A stretch of 10,307 bases of DNA from Candidatus Pacearchaeota archaeon (GTDB taxonomy: Archaea; Nanobdellota; Nanobdellia; Pacearchaeales; GW2011-AR1), in NCBI GenBank assembly GCA_050303855.1, contig JBNLCO010000010.1:222207-232513 (forward strand), read 5' to 3'. Shown here piece after piece: positions 1,994 through 8,003 of this stretch (position 1 is the stretch's first letter; each line of letters begins with the position of its first letter). The notes beneath the pieces are model-generated. The model was not told the origin of the DNA and made no database searches. It was given only the letters and a program-made list of their open reading frames with translations. A program made the position numbers and the translations under genes.

Positions 1994-2440
1994 TCAATTC
2001 TCCATTAGGATATTGTTTAATTCTATGAATCTAGCTTCTTTTTCAGCGAGTTCTTTCTCGTTTTCTCTAAGTTCTTTCTTAAGTAATGCTATATCTTTCC
2101 AACAATTGATCTTTTCATTAAGCTGGTGTTCTGAGATTTCTACCTTTTTGTTCCTTAGAGAATTCTTTTCTATAATTGGGTCTTTGTCTCCTAAAACTGC
2201 AGGAGAGTTCTCAATATCCAAAAGGAAGTTACTTATCTCTAGCTTTATTTCATCTCCTTCTCTTAGGAAGTTCTGACTAAGAATATTTCTTTCTTGAATC
2301 AACTTCTGGATTTCAGAAATTGTTCTTTTTAGGGAATTAACCTTATCTTGACCTATTGATCCAATAGAGTTGCCACTTGTGAGACTTGATATTTCGGGTC
2401 TTACCGCCTCTTCCGCATGGTATTTCATATTTTCCATCAT
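1994..2440 (-). CDS. hypothetical coiled-coil protein (148 aa), first gene of the minus-strand operon
   Basis: ORF in track. K/E-rich heptad-like sequence (ELRENEKELAEKEARFIELNNILMEN). Palindromic TTTATAAA box at 2459-2466, 19-26 nt upstream of its ATG at 2440, consistent with a leaderless archaeal promoter. Confidence 0.5.
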   Translation of the reverse strand: MMENMKYHAEEAVRPEISSLTSGNSIGSIGQDKVNSLKRTISEIQKLIQERNILSQNFLREGDEIKLEISNFLLDIENSPAVLGDKDPIIEKNSLRNKKVEISEHQLNEKINCWKDIALLKKELRENEKELAEKEARFIELNNILMEN

Positions 2441-2458
2441 TTCATAGTGATAACATAC

Positions 2459-2466
2459 TTTATAAA
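2459..2466 (-). promoter_or_regulatory. palindromic TATA box TTTATAAA for the minus-strand three-gene operon (leaderless)
   Basis: TTTATAAA lies 19-26 nt upstream of the ATG at 2440. The same octamer recurs at 4639-4646 and 4893-4900, at the same distance from other start codons. Confidence 0.4.
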
Positions 2467-2534
2467 TGTTTCTATTTAGTAGTTACTCTATAGTTAGTAC
2501 ATTATCTTAAATAAAACAGGTCTCCTAGTTTAGA

Positions 2535-3296
2535 ATGGGTGAGATTCAAGACAAAGAGATAATTTCAGAGTTATGTGGGGCAATAATTGGCGATGGGTGG
2601 ATCCAATCAAATGAGAGGTGTTTCTTTCTTGCAGGAGATCCTACAGAAGATAGAGATTACTATGATTCCCACATTCCAGAAATATTTAGAAAGGTTTTGA
2701 TAACTGTGACTCCAAAAGAATTCCCCTACTGGAGTGTCTATGGCATTTCAATATATAAGAAAGACATAATTCAGAAATTACTTTCTTGGAATATCCCCAA
2801 GGGCAAAAAAGTTGACACTGCAAGAATTCCAAACTGGATAAAGAAATCAGAGGATAAAGTTAAGAAAGCGTTCCTTAGAGGATTCTTTGATGCTGATGGA
2901 AGCATCTTCTGTCAAAAAGATTATACCAAATACGCGAAGGAATTTAATTCAAAACATCATGTTAAGGCTAGATTGAGAATAACAAGTATCTCAAGTAATC
3001 TTGTAGATGAAATGAAGGGAATGTGTGAGGAAGTAGGGTTTAAAGTAATAAGAAGGACAATTAAAAGAGGGAGAATAAGTGAACGTAATTGTAAAGATAT
3101 TCACATAATTGAGATAAATCATTTGGAGAGTATAAGGAAATGGTTTGAAGAATTGAAGCCCTCTAACCCCAAACACACTACAAAATATCGGATATGGAAG
3201 AAATTTGGCTTTTGTCCTCCAAAAACGACGCTAATTCAGAGGAAAGAAATACTTAAAAATGAATTAAGCCCTTATTCATTCTATATGCAGGAGTAG
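2535..3296 (+). CDS. double-motif LAGLIDADG homing endonuclease (I-DmoI-like architecture), free-standing
   Basis: Two LAGLIDADG-type motifs about 100 aa apart: ELCGAIIGDGWIQ (aa12-24, nt about 2568-2606) and FLRGFFDADGSIF (aa113-125, nt 2871-2909). Length 253 aa fits single-chain enzymes. A/T box TTAAATAAAA at 2507-2516 lies about 24 nt before the ATG. Stop codon TAG at 3294-3296 lies inside the tRNA-Leu gene. Confidence 0.75.
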   Translation: MGEIQDKEIISELCGAIIGDGWIQSNERCFFLAGDPTEDRDYYDSHIPEIFRKVLITVTPKEFPYWSVYGISIYKKDIIQKLLSWNIPKGKKVDTARIPNWIKKSEDKVKKAFLRGFFDADGSIFCQKDYTKYAKEFNSKHHVKARLRITSISSNLVDEMKGMCEEVGFKVIRRTIKRGRISERNCKDIHIIEINHLESIRKWFEELKPSNPKHTTKYRIWKKFGFCPPKTTLIQRKEILKNELSPYSFYMQE

Positions 3297-3370
3297 CGAA
3301 GTGGTCAAACGCGCAAGACTCAAGATCTTGTCTCTTAGTGAGTTCGAAGGTTCGAATCCTTTCTCCTGCA
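3287..3370 (+). tRNA. tRNA-Leu (anticodon CAA), class II with long variable arm, CCA not encoded
   Basis: Hand-folded cloverleaf. Acceptor GCAGGAG/CTCCTGC plus discriminator A. 3-bp D-stem GCG/CGC with a GG-containing D-loop. Anticodon stem CAAGA/TCTTG with loop CTCAAGA (U33, anticodon CAA, purine 37). Variable arm CTC-TTAGT-GAG. T-arm GGTTCGAATCC. Confidence 0.85.
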
Positions 3371-3466
3371 TAAACTTTATAAAGCCAAGATAATTCGGCA
3401 TTATACGACCTGCGAGTTAATCGCGTTAGCGGGGAAACATTTTTCTCGTTAATTGGATAATATAAA

Positions 3467-3838
3467 ATGATAAAATCAAAAACAAAGATATCGAAGCAAT
3501 TAGAAAGAAAAACTAATCCAGAATTAGTCGAAACAATACTATTAGCTAAGAAGAGTGCTTCTTGGTTAGAAATTGCATCAATCTTGTCAGGATCTAGAAG
3601 AAAGAGAATTAATATTAATCTAAGTGATTTAAGTAAAAGTATTGAAAGTGAGAAAATAGTTCTTATTCCCGGAAAAGTATTGTCTGAAGGAGAAATGGAT
3701 AAAAAAGCAAAGATTGTTGCCTTAAACTTCTCTGAAAAAGCAAAAGAAAAGTTGATAAAAGCTGGATGCGAAGTTTCAAGTATACTAGAGGAAATTAAAT
3801 CAAACCCTGAAGCTAAGGGTATTAAGGTGTTAAAATGA
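3467..3838 (+). CDS. rpl18e: 50S ribosomal protein L18e
   Basis: N-terminal ...KTNPELVETILLAKK..W..IASIL..SRRKRININLSDL pattern typical of archaeal L18e. About 123 aa. Followed by L13 and S9 in the conserved archaeal order. ATGA overlap with the next gene. Confidence 0.85.
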   Translation: MIKSKTKISKQLERKTNPELVETILLAKKSASWLEIASILSGSRRKRININLSDLSKSIESEKIVLIPGKVLSEGEMDKKAKIVALNFSEKAKEKLIKAGCEVSSILEEIKSNPEAKGIKVLK

Positions 3839-4224
3839 AGGTAGTTGATGCAACAAATTATCCAATGGGAAGACTTGCAAGCTTTGTAGCAAAAGAAGCT
3901 TTGAAGGGGGAAGAAGTAAAGGTAATCAATTGTAACAAAGTCTTGATAACTGGAAGTAGAGAATATGTTGAAAAAGAGTTCCAAGTTAGAAGGGGAAGAT
4001 ATGGAAGTTCTCAAAAAGGACCAAGAATTTCAAAATCAAACGAACAAATAGTTAAAAGAACAATAAGAGGTATGCTTCCAAACTTTAGAGAAGGAAAAGG
4101 AAGAGAAGCTTACAAAAGAATAATGTGTTATAATGAAGGTTTAGGTGAAGAAGTTAAAGAGATTGTAACTCTTGGAAAAAGAAAACCAAAGAAATCAATT
4201 AAATTAGAATCAATGAGAAAATGA
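3835..4224 (+). CDS. rpl13: 50S ribosomal protein L13
   Basis: MKVVDATNYPMGRLASFVAKEALKGEEVKVINCNKVLITG matches the conserved L13 N-terminus (IDA..LGRLAS.VAK.LL.GE.V.VVN). Translationally coupled on both sides by ATGA overlaps. Confidence 0.9.
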   Translation: MKVVDATNYPMGRLASFVAKEALKGEEVKVINCNKVLITGSREYVEKEFQVRRGRYGSSQKGPRISKSNEQIVKRTIRGMLPNFREGKGREAYKRIMCYNEGLGEEVKEIVTLGKRKPKKSIKLESMRK

Positions 4225-5277: not shown

Positions 5278-5862
5278 ATGGGGTTGAGTTTAGATGATCT
5301 CTCTGAAATAAGTCGGAAATTATTTAAGGAAGCGCAAGAAACAGAAATCAAGGAAGACTATGACCTTGCTTTGAGAATTTTAGACAAAGAAATTAAAACA
5401 ACAAAAGATCTTACAAGCCGTCATTACAACCAAAGAGGCATTTGTCTTTGTGCTCTTGGAGAATATAACAATGCAATTGAGAATTATAGTAATGCTATAG
5501 ATCTTCATAAAGGAGGGTTAGAAGACTCCGCAATACTTTATGCTAATAGGGGAGATGCTCAAGTCAAAAGAAATATGTTAATGAATGCTCTATCTGATTA
5601 TAAAGAAGCAGTAATTAGGGATCCTAAAGCTAGCTATTATTTGTTTAAAATTTCAAAGATAAATAAAAAATTAAATCAAAAAGAAAAAATGAGACAAAAT
5701 TTTGAAGAAGGATTAAGAGTATTTTGTACACAAATAAAGGATAAAGGTCTTAACAAAATATCTGAGGTAAAAAATGAATATCCAAACACATTGGAGATAA
5801 TAAAAGAAATTTCGCAAGAAACAACGGATATAAATGTAGCATTGATGGGGTTATTTGAATAA
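5278..5862 (+). CDS. TPR-repeat protein
   Basis: At least two TPR-like units (YNQRGICLCALGEYNNAIENYSNAIDL; YANRGDAQVKRNMLMNALSDYKEAVIRDPK). TATA-like TTATATA at 5250-5256 lies about 25 nt upstream of the ATG. An in-frame TGA at 5269-5271 excludes the upstream ATG. Confidence 0.65.
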   Translation: MGLSLDDLSEISRKLFKEAQETEIKEDYDLALRILDKEIKTTKDLTSRHYNQRGICLCALGEYNNAIENYSNAIDLHKGGLEDSAILYANRGDAQVKRNMLMNALSDYKEAVIRDPKASYYLFKISKINKKLNQKEKMRQNFEEGLRVFCTQIKDKGLNKISEVKNEYPNTLEIIKEISQETTDINVALMGLFE

Positions 5863-6417
5863 TTATTCAGAAATTTTTCTTCTTTTAGTTAAGGTATCTA
5901 GTTTATCTTGTACTTTATTAAATAATATTGAAGATACAATTGGTTTATGATCTGCTTCATGAATTTGACCATCAAATTTTATCTTTCCTATATAAGCAAA
6001 ATTTCTAAGTATTTTCTTTAAACCATTTACGGAAAGTTGGTGTTTTTTTGATAGTGTGTTTAAGTTCATTCTTGGTTGTAAGAACTCTTCGAATATTTCT
6101 TCTACCTCTTCATAGTTTTGAGCTGGAACTAAAACTCCTGAATCATGATTTCTTTTATACCCAAATGGTGCTCTAGACATGTGTAATCCTTTAGAAGATT
6201 TCTTTATCATCCCAATTTTTTGATTTTCCCCACGGAACTTAGAATATTTTCTTAAAGGTTCAAGATTCTTTTCAAGGATTTTTTCTTCAATATATACATC
6301 TAATTCTTCGGGAGTATTGGGGGAGAAAGTATGGCAAATACTACATAATGTTAGTCCAAACTTACTCTTGTTCTTATCCGAAACATACCCGCATTTTACG
6401 CATTTACTTTCATTCAT
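5863..6417 (-). CDS. zinc-ribbon + serine-recombinase 'recombinase-domain' protein lacking a resolvase catalytic domain
   Basis: N-terminal CxxC...CxxC (CVKCGY...CSICH). Central GLHMSRAPFGYKRNHDSGVLVPAQNYEEVEEIFEEF and ILRNFAYIGKIKF resemble the recombinase domain of large serine recombinases (PPfGYk ... iLtNpaYiG). No N-terminal resolvase catalytic Ser domain. Start overlaps the xerA-like stop by 8 nt, suggesting translational coupling. Confidence 0.6.
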   Translation of the reverse strand: MNESKCVKCGYVSDKNKSKFGLTLCSICHTFSPNTPEELDVYIEEKILEKNLEPLRKYSKFRGENQKIGMIKKSSKGLHMSRAPFGYKRNHDSGVLVPAQNYEEVEEIFEEFLQPRMNLNTLSKKHQLSVNGLKKILRNFAYIGKIKFDGQIHEADHKPIVSSILFNKVQDKLDTLTKRRKISE

Positions 6418-7249
6418 TTTGCATCAATCCATCTATAGGGGATTTTATTTTTTTTAATTGTTCCGTTGAAACGTGAGCGTAAATTTCTGTGGTCGCAAGG
6501 TTACTATGGCCAAGAAGAGTTTGTATAAATCTTATGTCTGTTCCATTTTCTAATAAATGTGTTGCAAAAGAGTGTCTTAAGGTATGGCAGTGAACATCTT
6601 TGTTTATTCCTGCTTTTTTTGCTGTATTTGAAACTATTTTTTGCATATTTCTAGGAGTAAGTTTTCCCTTTGGACCTGAGAAAATGTAAACTTGGTTGAA
6701 TTCTTTTTGATTTTTAGCACGATTTTTTAGATCTTCATATAAGAATTCGGGAATATTAAACATACGATCTTTCTTTCCTTTAGCTTGTTTTACATAACCT
6801 ATCTTATTATCAAAATCTAGATCATCTATTTTAAGACTAACCAGTTCTGAAACCCGAAACCCACAAGCATACATAAGAGACATCATTAACCTTGATTTCT
6901 TATTTGAAGCGACATCAAACATCCTTTTGACTTCTTCTTTTGTTAAAACTGCAGGGATTCTTTTTTCTCGTTTTGGTCTTTTAATACCTTGAGTTATATC
7001 TTTTTTTAGAATATTTGAATAAGCATATTTAATTGCGGATAAGAAAACAATCGTTGAACTTGAACTTGAATCAGATAATCTCTCAACTAAGAAAAGTTTT
7101 AGATCGTCTTCACTCATATCATCTGGTATTTTATTTGTAAATATGAATAATTCATTGTTTGCTCTTAGATAGTTTCTTAAAGTATAATTGGAATTTTTAG
7201 AGATCTTCAGTTCTATTTCAAGTTTTTTTAGAAATTCTTCTGGAGTCAT
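6410..7249 (-). CDS. xerA: tyrosine recombinase, XerA/XerC/XerD-like
   Basis: C-terminal catalytic motifs: GFRVSEL (Arg I), HTLRHSFATHLLENG (H-x-x-R box), LLGHSNLATTEIYAHV (catalytic Tyr). N-terminal core-binding-like region. 279 aa, the size of archaeal XerA. Confidence 0.88.
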   Translation of the reverse strand: MTPEEFLKKLEIELKISKNSNYTLRNYLRANNELFIFTNKIPDDMSEDDLKLFLVERLSDSSSSSTIVFLSAIKYAYSNILKKDITQGIKRPKREKRIPAVLTKEEVKRMFDVASNKKSRLMMSLMYACGFRVSELVSLKIDDLDFDNKIGYVKQAKGKKDRMFNIPEFLYEDLKNRAKNQKEFNQVYIFSGPKGKLTPRNMQKIVSNTAKKAGINKDVHCHTLRHSFATHLLENGTDIRFIQTLLGHSNLATTEIYAHVSTEQLKKIKSPIDGLMQNE

Positions 7250-7250
7250 A

Positions 7251-7916
7251 TTATTTCTTAGGGGCTTTTAGGAAAAGATTTTTCCAAACAGGCTGTTTAA
7301 ACAGCTGTTTATTATCTTTGAAAACTATTGTATTTATTCCTAATTTAGAAGCGGGTTTTGTATTCCAAACTTGATTATCAATAAATAATATATTTTTTGG
7401 TTTTACCCCTATTTTTTTTATTAAAAGTTTGAAGATCTCAGGATTTGGTTTTCTCATTCCAGCGTCGCAAGATACAATTATATCATCAAAATTCTTGTAA
7501 AGTTTTGGAGGCATTAGTGCTTTCTTAGATAAAACCCATTGATCTGATAAAACACTTACATTATATCCTAATTTTTTTAGTTTAGATGCCTGATTAAACA
7601 GCCATTCATTTTGTTTGAAATGTTTTTTGTAAGAATTTATGTATAAACTTCTTACTTTCTTTTCTGAAATTTTGAAGTTTTTTGAAAGTGTAGAAACAAC
7701 TCTTTCTGGAGAGATTTTACCTTCTATTGCAAGTGCATAAGTCGTATCTATAGCATCAAGATATTGATCCAATGAAATCTTAAGTTTTTTTGCAATATCT
7801 GTGTGTACTCCAGATGGAATTAATTTTCCAGATTCTAATTTAGAACTTTCGCCTAGAGCAAGAACTCCGCTTACATCAAAAACAATGGATTTTATGTTGA
7901 GATCACCTTTTTTCAT
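7251..7916 (-). CDS. HAD-superfamily hydrolase, subfamily IA-like
   Basis: Motif I-like VFDVSGVLA (Ser at the second-Asp position). DAGMRKPNPEIF (motif III Lys, KPxPxxF). FIDNQVWN (motif IV). A/T box TTTAAAAA at 7938-7945 lies about 25 nt upstream of the ATG at 7916. Confidence 0.72.
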   Translation of the reverse strand: MKKGDLNIKSIVFDVSGVLALGESSKLESGKLIPSGVHTDIAKKLKISLDQYLDAIDTTYALAIEGKISPERVVSTLSKNFKISEKKVRSLYINSYKKHFKQNEWLFNQASKLKKLGYNVSVLSDQWVLSKKALMPPKLYKNFDDIIVSCDAGMRKPNPEIFKLLIKKIGVKPKNILFIDNQVWNTKPASKLGINTIVFKDNKQLFKQPVWKNLFLKAPKK

Positions 7917-8003
7917 GATATGGTTATACGAACTATGTTTAAAAATTCTTCTAAGATATCTTTTTATAGTTAATTCGTGTGATTGTTTGAGGAGAGGTTA
8001 AGT

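Follow-up and report, generated by a model that had tools for sequence, protein, structure and literature searches.

ZRD, a zinc-ribbon protein with the recombinase domain of serine recombinases, is encoded beside xerA in DPANN archaea and may act in Xer recombination

Introduction

The accessory and control proteins of Xer recombination are ArgR, PepA and ArcA at cer and psi, FtsK-gamma, and XafT; bacterial accessory sequences lie on one side of the Xer core site. In archaea, XerA works without FtsK, and a partner regulating it in vivo was left open (PMC2958812). Here, we analyse a stretch of 10,307 nucleotides (nt) from the chromosome of a Candidatus Pacearchaeota archaeon (GenBank assembly GCA_050303855.1, contig JBNLCO010000010.1, positions 222,207 to 232,513, hereafter the window), in which xerA overlaps the gene of a protein of 184 amino acids (aa). 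We named this protein ZRD, for zinc ribbon plus recombinase domain. Our favoured reading, which we advance tentatively, is that ZRD would be a DNA-level accessory, architectural or regulatory factor for recombination by XerA, or by a serine recombinase (SR) in other lineages.

If this reading is right, ZRD would share with ArgR/PepA/ArcA, FtsK-gamma and XafT the role of a non-catalytic factor controlling Xer recombination, although it has no homology to any of them. A parallel from the tyrosine recombinases is TnsF of Tn6022-like Tn7 transposons, an inactivated derivative of that family serving as target selector (PMC10293859). TnsF, as proposed here for ZRD, is a recombinase without catalysis that has been kept as the DNA-recognition subunit of another machinery; unlike the apparently serine-derived and chromosomal ZRD, it is transposon-encoded, and its target, comM, has been demonstrated. 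The large serine recombinases (the Listeria innocua integrase of structures 4KIS and 6DNW, and those of SPbeta, Bxb1 and phiC31) have in common with ZRD the homology and fold of the recombinase domain, the tip of helix alphaE and the ...PFGY linker. In large serine integrases, it is the inner part of each att half-site that the recombinase-domain module binds. ZRD differs from these enzymes in lacking both the resolvase domain and the C-terminal zinc/coiled-coil domain, in carrying an unrelated N-terminal C4 ribbon followed by helices, and in being chromosomal and vertically inherited, whereas large serine integrases are phage-borne.

The described Xer modules XerS/difSL, XerH/difH and archaeal xerA/dif (PMC2958812, PMC5357621) resemble the loci related to the window in that a dif-like site lies 0.1-2.5 kb upstream of xerA. 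The DPANN module departs from what is described for them by its promoter half-site, its extra ZRD gene and its alternation with serine recombinases, and in several DPANN lineages by its position 6-7 kb from cdc6/orc1. In the literature searched, we found no published description of the ZRD family, of compact DPANN serine recombinases or of an XerA partner. Likewise, no prior case was found there of what ZRD appears to be, a serine-recombinase DNA-binding module domesticated into a stand-alone chromosomal protein.

Results

ZRD combines a zinc ribbon with a complete recombinase domain

The whole ZRD gene spans positions 5863..6417 on the minus strand, and the encoded protein divides into three parts. 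Residues 1-33 (6319..6417, minus strand) form a C4 zinc ribbon, C6-x2-C9 ... C25-x2-C28, assigned from the invariant cysteines and the AlphaFold model. Residues 34-62 (6232..6318, minus strand) are modelled as two linking helices, at residues 36-44 and 49-58. Residues 63-181 (5875..6231, minus strand) hold the C-terminal end of alphaE, the ...SRAPFGY linker and a complete recombinase domain, as delimited by BLASTP, phrog_95, PF07508 and Foldseek.

ZRD scored 27.3 bits against PF07508, above the gathering score of 21.1 and hence a significant match, with residues 125-174 only in the alignment. Residues 63-181 matched the large-serine-integrase family phrog_95 (E 1.2e-16) at profile positions 223-363 of 651, and a weak match to XisF covered profile positions 144-284 of 465. 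In a profile search, ZRD positions ~50-176 aligned to residues ~130-260 of serine recombinases of ~250-270 aa and of ~500 aa. The AlphaFold model, with a mean predicted local distance difference test (pLDDT) score of 89, found large-serine-recombinase chains only among its 10 best PDB matches in Foldseek (4KIS, 6DNW, 9Y66, 9DXH, 9DXF and 9DXD; query-normalised TM-score about 0.5). Against 4KIS, the L. innocua integrase-DNA complex, the root-mean-square deviation was 2.4-2.8 A over ~125 columns (E 4e-6), and the predicted structure has the mixed alpha/beta recombinase-domain fold seen in complexes of large serine recombinases with DNA. Searching the PDB sequences with the ZRD profile gave no match at E<=0.01.

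The PF00239 resolvase catalytic domain was not detected in ZRD at E<=1, and the alignment to serine recombinases begins at their residue ~147, past the catalytic domain. Because it lacks PF00239 and its residues 1-62 are a zinc ribbon plus two helices, we do not class ZRD as a serine recombinase. A C-terminal zinc-ribbon/coiled-coil domain of the large-serine-recombinase type was not found either, the protein ending where the recombinase domain ends, and the N-terminal zinc ribbon gave no match to the zinc domain of those enzymes. This ribbon is modelled as short beta-hairpins (pLDDT 87-92), and none of C6, C9, C25 and C28 varies among 57 homologues taken from the loci and 20 from databases; in a subgroup with a length of 134-141 aa, the first CxxC alone is retained. 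For residues 34-62, which lie outside the region aligned with serine recombinases, there was no Pfam match and no homologue outside the ZRD family. The putative recognition helix reads S129-V-N-G-L-K-K-I-L-R-N139, with the family pattern S129-x-N-G-x-K-K-I-L-x-N139. The original prediction, which had described a zinc ribbon joined to a recombinase domain without a catalytic Ser domain, is thus borne out by PF07508, phrog_95, the fold and the invariant cysteines.

Database searches returned 977 ZRD homologues at E<=0.001, all of about 175-185 aa among the matches listed. The few named ones come from Nanoarchaeia or Pacearchaeota and are labelled just "recombinase family protein". In a scan with one genome per GTDB species, relatives occurred in 292 species-representative genomes of Pace-, Woese- and Nanoarchaeota. 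Across the family, the four cysteines and about 40 other positions are invariant; ZRD is not an orphan, and its alignment reads as that of a protein under purifying selection. Its lack of a catalytic domain, together with the loss of half of the zinc ribbon in the 134-141-aa subgroup, would also suit a decaying pseudogene remnant of a serine recombinase. We find this hardly credible: the ~1000 homologues keep a constant length, about 45 positions are invariant, the four cysteines among them, the open reading frames (ORFs) are intact and the fold is predicted with confidence.

The closest relatives are compact serine recombinases from the same archaea

The same archaeal loci encode compact serine recombinases with PF00239 and PF07508, namely SR-A (250-263 aa) and SR-B (251-271 aa). 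Their catalytic domain is intact, with R20, the nucleophile S22, D91, R92 and R95 invariant, and no C-terminal zinc/coiled-coil domain follows the recombinase domain. Their public annotation is 'recombinase family protein' only, and they are uncharacterised. ZRD residues 63-181 are 44% identical to SR-A residues 147-262 (BLASTP, E 1e-31), as against 33% for SR-B. The likeness to SR-A extends over the alphaE tip plus the recombinase domain, and the two genes share a neighbourhood and sometimes one operon; unlike ZRD, SR-A and SR-B have an intact catalytic domain and a conserved palindrome at their own promoter. The first three positions of the recognition helix also differ consistently, being S-V-N in ZRD and T-T-S/A in SR-A. 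The best reading of these sequences is that ZRD is a non-catalytic paralogue of the native compact SR-A that has been exapted. The original prediction had seen an unusual chimera, in which a tyrosine recombinase is paired with a catalytically dead fragment of the unrelated serine family. The missing catalytic domain stands, but the locus looks less of a chimera between unrelated systems, since ZRD is paralogous to a compact, intact serine recombinase of the same archaea.

This kinship raises the question of whether SR-A, encoded at the locus or at some other place in the genome, is the true partner of ZRD, which would then act as a catalytically dead subunit on SR half-sites or accessory sites, much as extra resolvase dimers do on res sites II and III, or as a dominant-negative regulator, its adjacency to XerA being incidental. 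Since its residues 63-181 are 44% identical to SR-A's DNA-binding region, ZRD probably recognises SR-A-like DNA. Sixteen genome loci and several metagenome loci hold operons of the form SR-(HAD)-ZRD, the palindrome of the SR-A control region is accompanied by an extra CCTAAGT half-site about 31 nt downstream, and the two families are similar in size (1142 SR-A matches, the best 120 of them at least 73% identical, and 977 for ZRD). Yet neither an SR gene nor the SR palindrome is present in the window or in 53 XerA-type loci, many SR loci have no ZRD nearby, and the recognition helices start differently. We therefore consider SR-A as the sole true partner quite unlikely.

Further ZRD paralogues lie at L027:861-1541, L080:149-601, L131:11335-11727 and similar places (loci are given by our numbers, followed by coordinates). 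The L027 paralogue, a 226-aa zinc-ribbon-plus-recombinase-domain protein, sits between SR-B and ZRD, making three consecutive recombinase-domain genes. Other ZRD-like genes downstream of SR-A have divergent N-termini, and in two loci where ZRD is not adjacent (L113:8727-9296, L140:10771-11331), a conserved gene of 186-189 aa directly follows SR-A, overlapping it by 4 nt in L140.

XerA and ZRD belong to a three-gene operon

The xerA gene (6410..7249, minus strand) encodes a chromosomal tyrosine recombinase of 279 aa. It matched PF00589 at E 8e-45 and reached 222.9 bits against the NCBIfam equivalog NF040815 (recomb_XerA_Arch), a marginal pass over the cut-off of 220. The catalytic set R-K-H-R-[H/W]-Y that defines Xer enzymes (PMC5357621) is complete, as read from the sequence: R132, a Lys hairpin at K157-160, H222, R225, H248 and Y257. 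On these three grounds, the assignment as XerA holds. There were 7729 homologues at E<=1e-20, of which the best 120 are DPANN proteins with 66-81% identity; an orthologue identity of 60-80% is consistent with vertical inheritance. In L067, the xerA orthologue is a single 699-aa ORF (2039-4138, plus strand) with a canonical intein (Pfam Intein_splicing E 2e-16, LAGLIDADG_3 E 4e-16), inserted at HTLRH|C...SHN|SFATHLL within the catalytic H-x-x-R-H motif of the tyrosine recombinase.

The junction of xerA and ZRD reads caaaATGAATGAaag, with the ZRD ATG at 6417-6415 and the xerA TGA at 6412-6410. The resulting overlap of 8 nt (ATGAATGA, 6410..6417, minus strand) thus holds both the stop codon of xerA and the start codon of ZRD. 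Upstream, a gene for a HAD-family hydrolase (7251..7916, minus strand; PF00702 E 9e-11, TIGR02247-like) precedes xerA by 1 nt, so that HAD, xerA and ZRD make up a three-gene unit, which on the sequence we take to be an operon behind a single promoter region, with HAD as its first gene. Translational coupling of ZRD to xerA, and hence co-expression of the two, had been proposed from the 8-nt overlap; the overlap is confirmed, the 1-nt gap between HAD and xerA and the one promoter region add to it, and co-expression is likely.

A further proposal was that the pair marks a small integrative or mobile element with the 'Xer' as its integrase. Both gene products do fall into integrase families that are common in mobile elements, phrog_1 and phrog_95, and at a distance of 2.5 kb there are a tRNA-Leu gene and a LAGLIDADG ORF. 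The proposal is nonetheless very improbable and we abandon it: the same housekeeping flanks recur in about 80 species, the window contains no att-like direct repeats and its GC content is uniform, the XerA equivalog cut-off is passed with orthologues 60-80% identical, and no defence or phage genes are found nearby. Around the pair in the window, att-like and dif-like repeats were limited to imperfect matches at chance level. The PADLOC defence models gave no match to ZRD, XerA, SR-A or HAD.

Gene order is conserved while the recombinase alternates

We surveyed 80 ZRD-centred genome loci, 75 of which were informative with at least 1.5 kb of upstream flank. In about 78 of the 80, ZRD is the last gene before the convergent S9-L13-L18e operon. 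The locus carries xerA in 53 of the 75 informative cases, 28 times directly upstream of ZRD, 24 times on the same strand 0.3-4.7 kb upstream, and once on the opposite strand. Where xerA directly adjoins ZRD, the spacing ranges from -32 to +58 nt, with -4 and +1 most frequent; the values met in related loci include -4 (ATGA), +1, -14, -17, -20, -23 and -32 nt. Reverse look-ups centred on XerA on long contigs agreed: in 3 of 3, a gene with PF07508 only separates xerA from the S9 operon. Its overlap with xerA is 4 nt in both L163 and L164, and in L162 it lies 2.4 kb downstream. Conserved synteny of ZRD with the tyrosine recombinase was thereby established (28 of 75 adjacent, 24 more within 5 kb, and all three look-ups). 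One apparent XerA-ZRD fusion, a 447-aa ORF in L009, was discarded, its junction being a masked run of N translated as X.

In 16 of the 75 loci, a compact serine recombinase stands in the place of xerA, which is then missing (SR-HAD-ZRD or SR-x-ZRD), and no ZRD-centred locus carries both recombinases (0/75). A recombinase of either family lies within 5 kb upstream in 69 of the 75. The flanks of xerA-type and SR-type loci are identical, with PRC-barrel-c24-c20-c14-c11-c18 on one side and S9-L13-L18e plus ribosomal and RNA-polymerase genes on the other. In a neighbour-joining tree built on S9+L13+L18e, the SR-type loci are scattered among the XerA-type ones, with L055/L056, L061/L066 and L025/L039 as sister pairs; L055 and L056 have a common derived rearrangement downstream. 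This scatter suggests that the slot beside the constant ZRD has switched more than once between unrelated recombinase families; alternatively, both recombinases were ancestral and have been lost differentially. HAD is a frequent syntenic companion of xerA or SR and of ZRD, 44 members of its cluster being present in the 80 ZRD-centred loci and the source locus of the window together, and the gene orders HAD-Xer-ZRD, Xer-HAD-ZRD and SR-HAD-ZRD were all met. A second survey, of 80 SR-A-centred metagenome loci, found many with ZRD or a ZRD-like gene downstream, and about 14 in which the SR lies in other contexts.

In L163:80-1291, L164:1081-2292 and L165:4528-5823, cdc6/orc1 and PolD subunit genes lie 6-7 kb from the module of dif-like site, xerA (or SR) and ZRD, which places it near the presumed replication origin in these three loci. 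Such origin-proximal placement is unusual for dif, and the upstream flank of the window itself differs, with cstA.

The conserved order can also be read without recombination. ZRD may be an exapted stand-alone transcription factor or nucleoid-associated protein, its adjacency to xerA being a matter of conserved gene order, and we regard this as a real possibility, if an unlikely one. The whole region, HAD-xerA-ZRD convergent with S9-L13-L18e, is collinear in about 80 species, the link of ZRD to S9 is tighter than that to xerA, and the residues of ZRD are independent of the neighbouring recombinase. Many ZRD genes follow a gene on the opposite strand (c17, c31 or CstA) and so need a promoter of their own, and multi-copy ACCTAAGTG elements lie ~20 nt upstream of the A/T-rich promoter boxes of several small genes, as the sites of an activator or repressor might. 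Against this, gene order rarely survives unselected at 50-76% protein identity, yet in 69 of 75 loci a recombinase gene is still found upstream at a distance of at most 5 kb; the slot alternated between two unrelated recombinase families while ZRD remained; tight overlaps of several geometries have been retained; and no link has been shown that ties the ACCTAAGTG elements to ZRD.

Candidate DNA sites of the module

We searched the non-coding DNA of all loci for conserved words, which brought out three kinds of site. The intergenic promoter region of the HAD-xerA-ZRD operon (7917..7982, minus strand) is divergent from cstA. It contains a TATA-like TTTTTAAAC (7945-7937) followed, some 8 nt short of the HAD ATG, by a dif-type half-site box, GTTCGTATAA (7933-7924); this box occurs once in the window, against 0.03 copies expected. 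The layout TATTTAAA-N2-3-AGTTCGYAYAAT-ATG recurs in nearly all 51 XerA-type operons, whose start follows the pattern TATTTAAA-N2-3-AGTTCG[C/T]A[C/T]AAT with the ATG 8-12 nt on. The half-site 10-mer has 73 matches in 821 kb, where about 6 are expected, and 33 of the 41 ORF-proximal ones precede HAD or xerA. This distribution suggests that the promoter half-site is a putative XerA operator, which would imply autoregulation.

The same 10-mer forms inverted repeats, aGTTCGYAYAA-N6-TTRTRCGAACc, with the 11-6-11 layout of dif (PMC2958812, PMC5357621). With a threshold of at least 17 of 20 arm positions, such dif-like sites were found in 18 of 54 XerA-type loci, in one orientation and 0.1-2.5 kb upstream of the operon; a threshold of 15/20 proved too noisy (74 observed vs 41 in shuffles). 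Examples are L008:2857-2882, L048:432-457, L049:687-712, L051:29-54, L063:1096-1121 and L164:7156-7181. We regard these repeats as candidate DPANN dif sites; their arm GTTCGCATAA resembles GGTGCGCATAA, which we take to be the XerC arm of Escherichia coli dif. In many SR-type loci, the SR palindrome also has an asymmetric dif-like copy about 50 nt upstream of it.

The SR-A genes or operons are preceded, in 81 of 81 loci, by TTTATATA-ACTTAGGG-CA-CCCTAAGT. The site is an 8-2-8 palindrome that abuts the TATA box and has CA or TG at its centre (for example L025:2332-2349, L054:4439-4456 and L113:7895-7912), and an extra CCTAAGT half-site lies about 31 nt downstream. From its architecture, the palindrome is a candidate crossover site that would double as an operator. 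As a site for the window or the XerA-type loci, it was rejected, being absent from both.

Of 25 stringent dif-like sites, 12 have on their left, no more than 250 nt away, a CCTAAGT, which matches the SR-A half-site CCCTAAGT at 7 of 8 positions; 1.2 would be expected. This one-sided enrichment resembles the layout of bacterial Xer accessory sequences. A fixed spacing between dif and the element was considered and dropped, with -46 found in a few related lineages only and several perfect sites having no CCTAAGT within 200 nt. More speculatively, and improbably in our view, ZRD could be the control element of an FtsK-less archaeal dimer resolution, acting through CCTAAGT half-sites on one side of the dif-like site. 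It would build an accessory nucleoprotein structure, comparable to ArgR/PepA at cer or to res II/III, that limits XerA to resolution. SR-A with its palindrome would then be an alternative resolution cassette, repeatedly swapped with xerA at an origin-proximal locus, and the swapped cassette would use the same ZRD-organised DNA.

Other repeated elements accompany the module. A multi-copy element, TAAC[T/C]AAG[C/T]-TAACCTAAGTGCAC, consists of two 10-bp direct repeats that hold an SR-A-like half-site and occurs in 76 loci (for example L060 near 3011, 3407 and 3823, and L164:6021, 6524 and 7015), but is absent from the window. Two to four copies per locus stand ~450 nt apart between c11 and the dif-like site, each about 20 nt upstream of A/T-rich boxes. 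The ACCTAAGTG elements were rejected as promoter elements of xerA or ZRD, as they mostly precede small or unidentified units and c18, and the region around them gave no match to Rfam families. A 12-bp palindrome, AAACAGCTGTTT (and AAACA[G/C][C/G]TGTTT), lies upstream of xerA at window positions 7299-7310 and is clustered in many loci, for example L009:2036-2619 and L164:5342-5919. Tandem arrays of it are found inside the coding region of c11, a coiled-coil/winged helix-turn-helix protein with repeated TAVE peptides, and clusters in the intergenic DNA adjoining c11; single copies stand 20-60 nt upstream of xerA, SR and ZRD starts and sometimes encode KQLFKQ. We rejected the palindrome upstream of the window xerA as a specific site (0.07 expected, one copy being reached in 14 of 200 shuffles), the motif being pervasive, also in coding regions; a role as an origin, centromere or uptake-type sequence is possible.

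Other features of the window

The window, which comes from a DPANN archaeal chromosome, is rich in AT (GC content ~31%). Besides the operon, it contains small membrane-protein genes, an L18e-L13-S9 operon of archaeal type and a gene for tRNA-Leu. A convergent TPR gene (5278..5862, plus strand) ends at ZRD, the stop codons of the two genes abutting. A free-standing LAGLIDADG-type ORF of 253 aa (2535-3296, plus strand; PF14528 E 8e-8) overlaps the tRNA-Leu(CAA) gene (3286-3371, plus strand) by 11 nt at the 5' end of the latter, and homologues of it occur in L071 and L163. Between a TATA box and the start of the L18e-L13-S9 operon (window ~3372-3466) lies a conserved leader, present also at L001:2869, L003:8854 and in about 40 loci. 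Its antisense reading is ...CGAGAA...CCCGC...AACTCGCAGGT, and it is possibly a ribosomal-protein leader or a regulatory RNA that has yet to be characterised.

Discussion

The data show what ZRD is and how it folds, that it has lost the catalytic domain, that it is conserved, that its gene lies in a chromosomal operon and that this gene is associated with those of recombinases; DNA binding by ZRD, and any effect it may have on recombination, we infer. In our favoured reading, that of a DNA-level factor in recombination, ZRD would keep the DNA-binding half of SR-A, namely the alphaE tip, the minor-groove linker and the recombinase domain. The N-terminal C4 zinc ribbon and two helices would have replaced the catalytic domain, which would leave ZRD unable to cut DNA. 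It would bind a specific short DNA site, probably with one subunit per half-site. Its gene would be a fixed element of a recombination module that holds xerA or SR, often with a dif-like site, while the half-site at the promoter of the xerA operon would mediate autoregulation by XerA. In the window, we postulate that ZRD acts on DNA at XerA/dif recombination, and that it is neither an enzyme nor an XerA-specific protein cofactor nor part of a mobile element.

That ZRD would not be an XerA-specific protein cofactor is suggested by the alignments. Conserved residues of ZRD, recognition helix included, are identical in XerA-type and SR-type loci, and no residues were found that co-vary with the type of the neighbouring recombinase. 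A partner-specific interface was therefore set aside, no residues differing between the two types of loci. Because the conserved residues are the same whichever recombinase lies upstream, an XerA-specific interface is disfavoured and an invariant DNA target of ZRD's own is favoured. A partnership specific to XerA is also opposed by S9 as the constant neighbour, by the 16 SR loci and by the ~24 loci in which xerA and ZRD are separated. The role in site selection or directionality that the original prediction had offered for a cofactor of XerA remains plausible on the sequences. In favour of joint action with XerA are the shared and translationally coupled operon, the recombinase gene of one family or the other upstream in 69 of 75 loci, the descent of ZRD from a DNA-binding module of recombinases, the putative recombination sites of the module, and the CCTAAGT elements enriched on one side of the dif-like sites.

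Several observations weigh against a function of ZRD in recombination. XerA of Pyrococcus abyssi recombines dif in vitro without any partner (PMC2958812), a further difference from the known Xer accessory and control proteins. The 10.3-kb window yielded no full dif-like site, only the promoter half-site at 7924-7933, and no CCTAAGT-type element; near dif, no accessory element at a fixed distance was found, and CCTAAGT elements occur upstream of unrelated small genes as well. Six of the 75 informative loci have no recombinase gene within 6 kb, and in L114, L156-L158 and L161 an SR lies directly beside the S9 operon with no ZRD. SR-A and an XerA-type gene stand about 1 kb apart in L113, and L140 has an SR plus, 10 kb away, a xerA with the typical promoter. 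Strict exclusivity of XerA and SR at the genome level is contradicted by these two loci, and since the enzymes coexist there, exclusivity is limited to the slot next to ZRD. The most constant neighbour of ZRD is the convergent S9 operon, the HAD hydrolase is common to the same synteny block, and unrelated genes, in some cases on the opposite strand, come between xerA and ZRD in about 24 loci. Given a region that is collinear throughout, adjacency by itself is weak as evidence, and much of the adjacency of xerA and ZRD can be inherited collinearity.

These results bring up a conserved family of compact DPANN serine recombinases with a candidate crossover/operator site, as well as a locus that alternates tyrosine and serine recombinases, candidate DPANN dif sites and a dif half-site in the xerA promoter. 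ZRD is also a practical candidate for study, being small (184 aa), confidently folded, easily purified and encoded in the same operon as xerA. Should ZRD prove to be only a transcription factor, it would be a modest example of exaptation. Since 2010, the question of how archaea control XerA in the absence of FtsK has awaited an answer, and ZRD is a concrete, widespread candidate for a partner.

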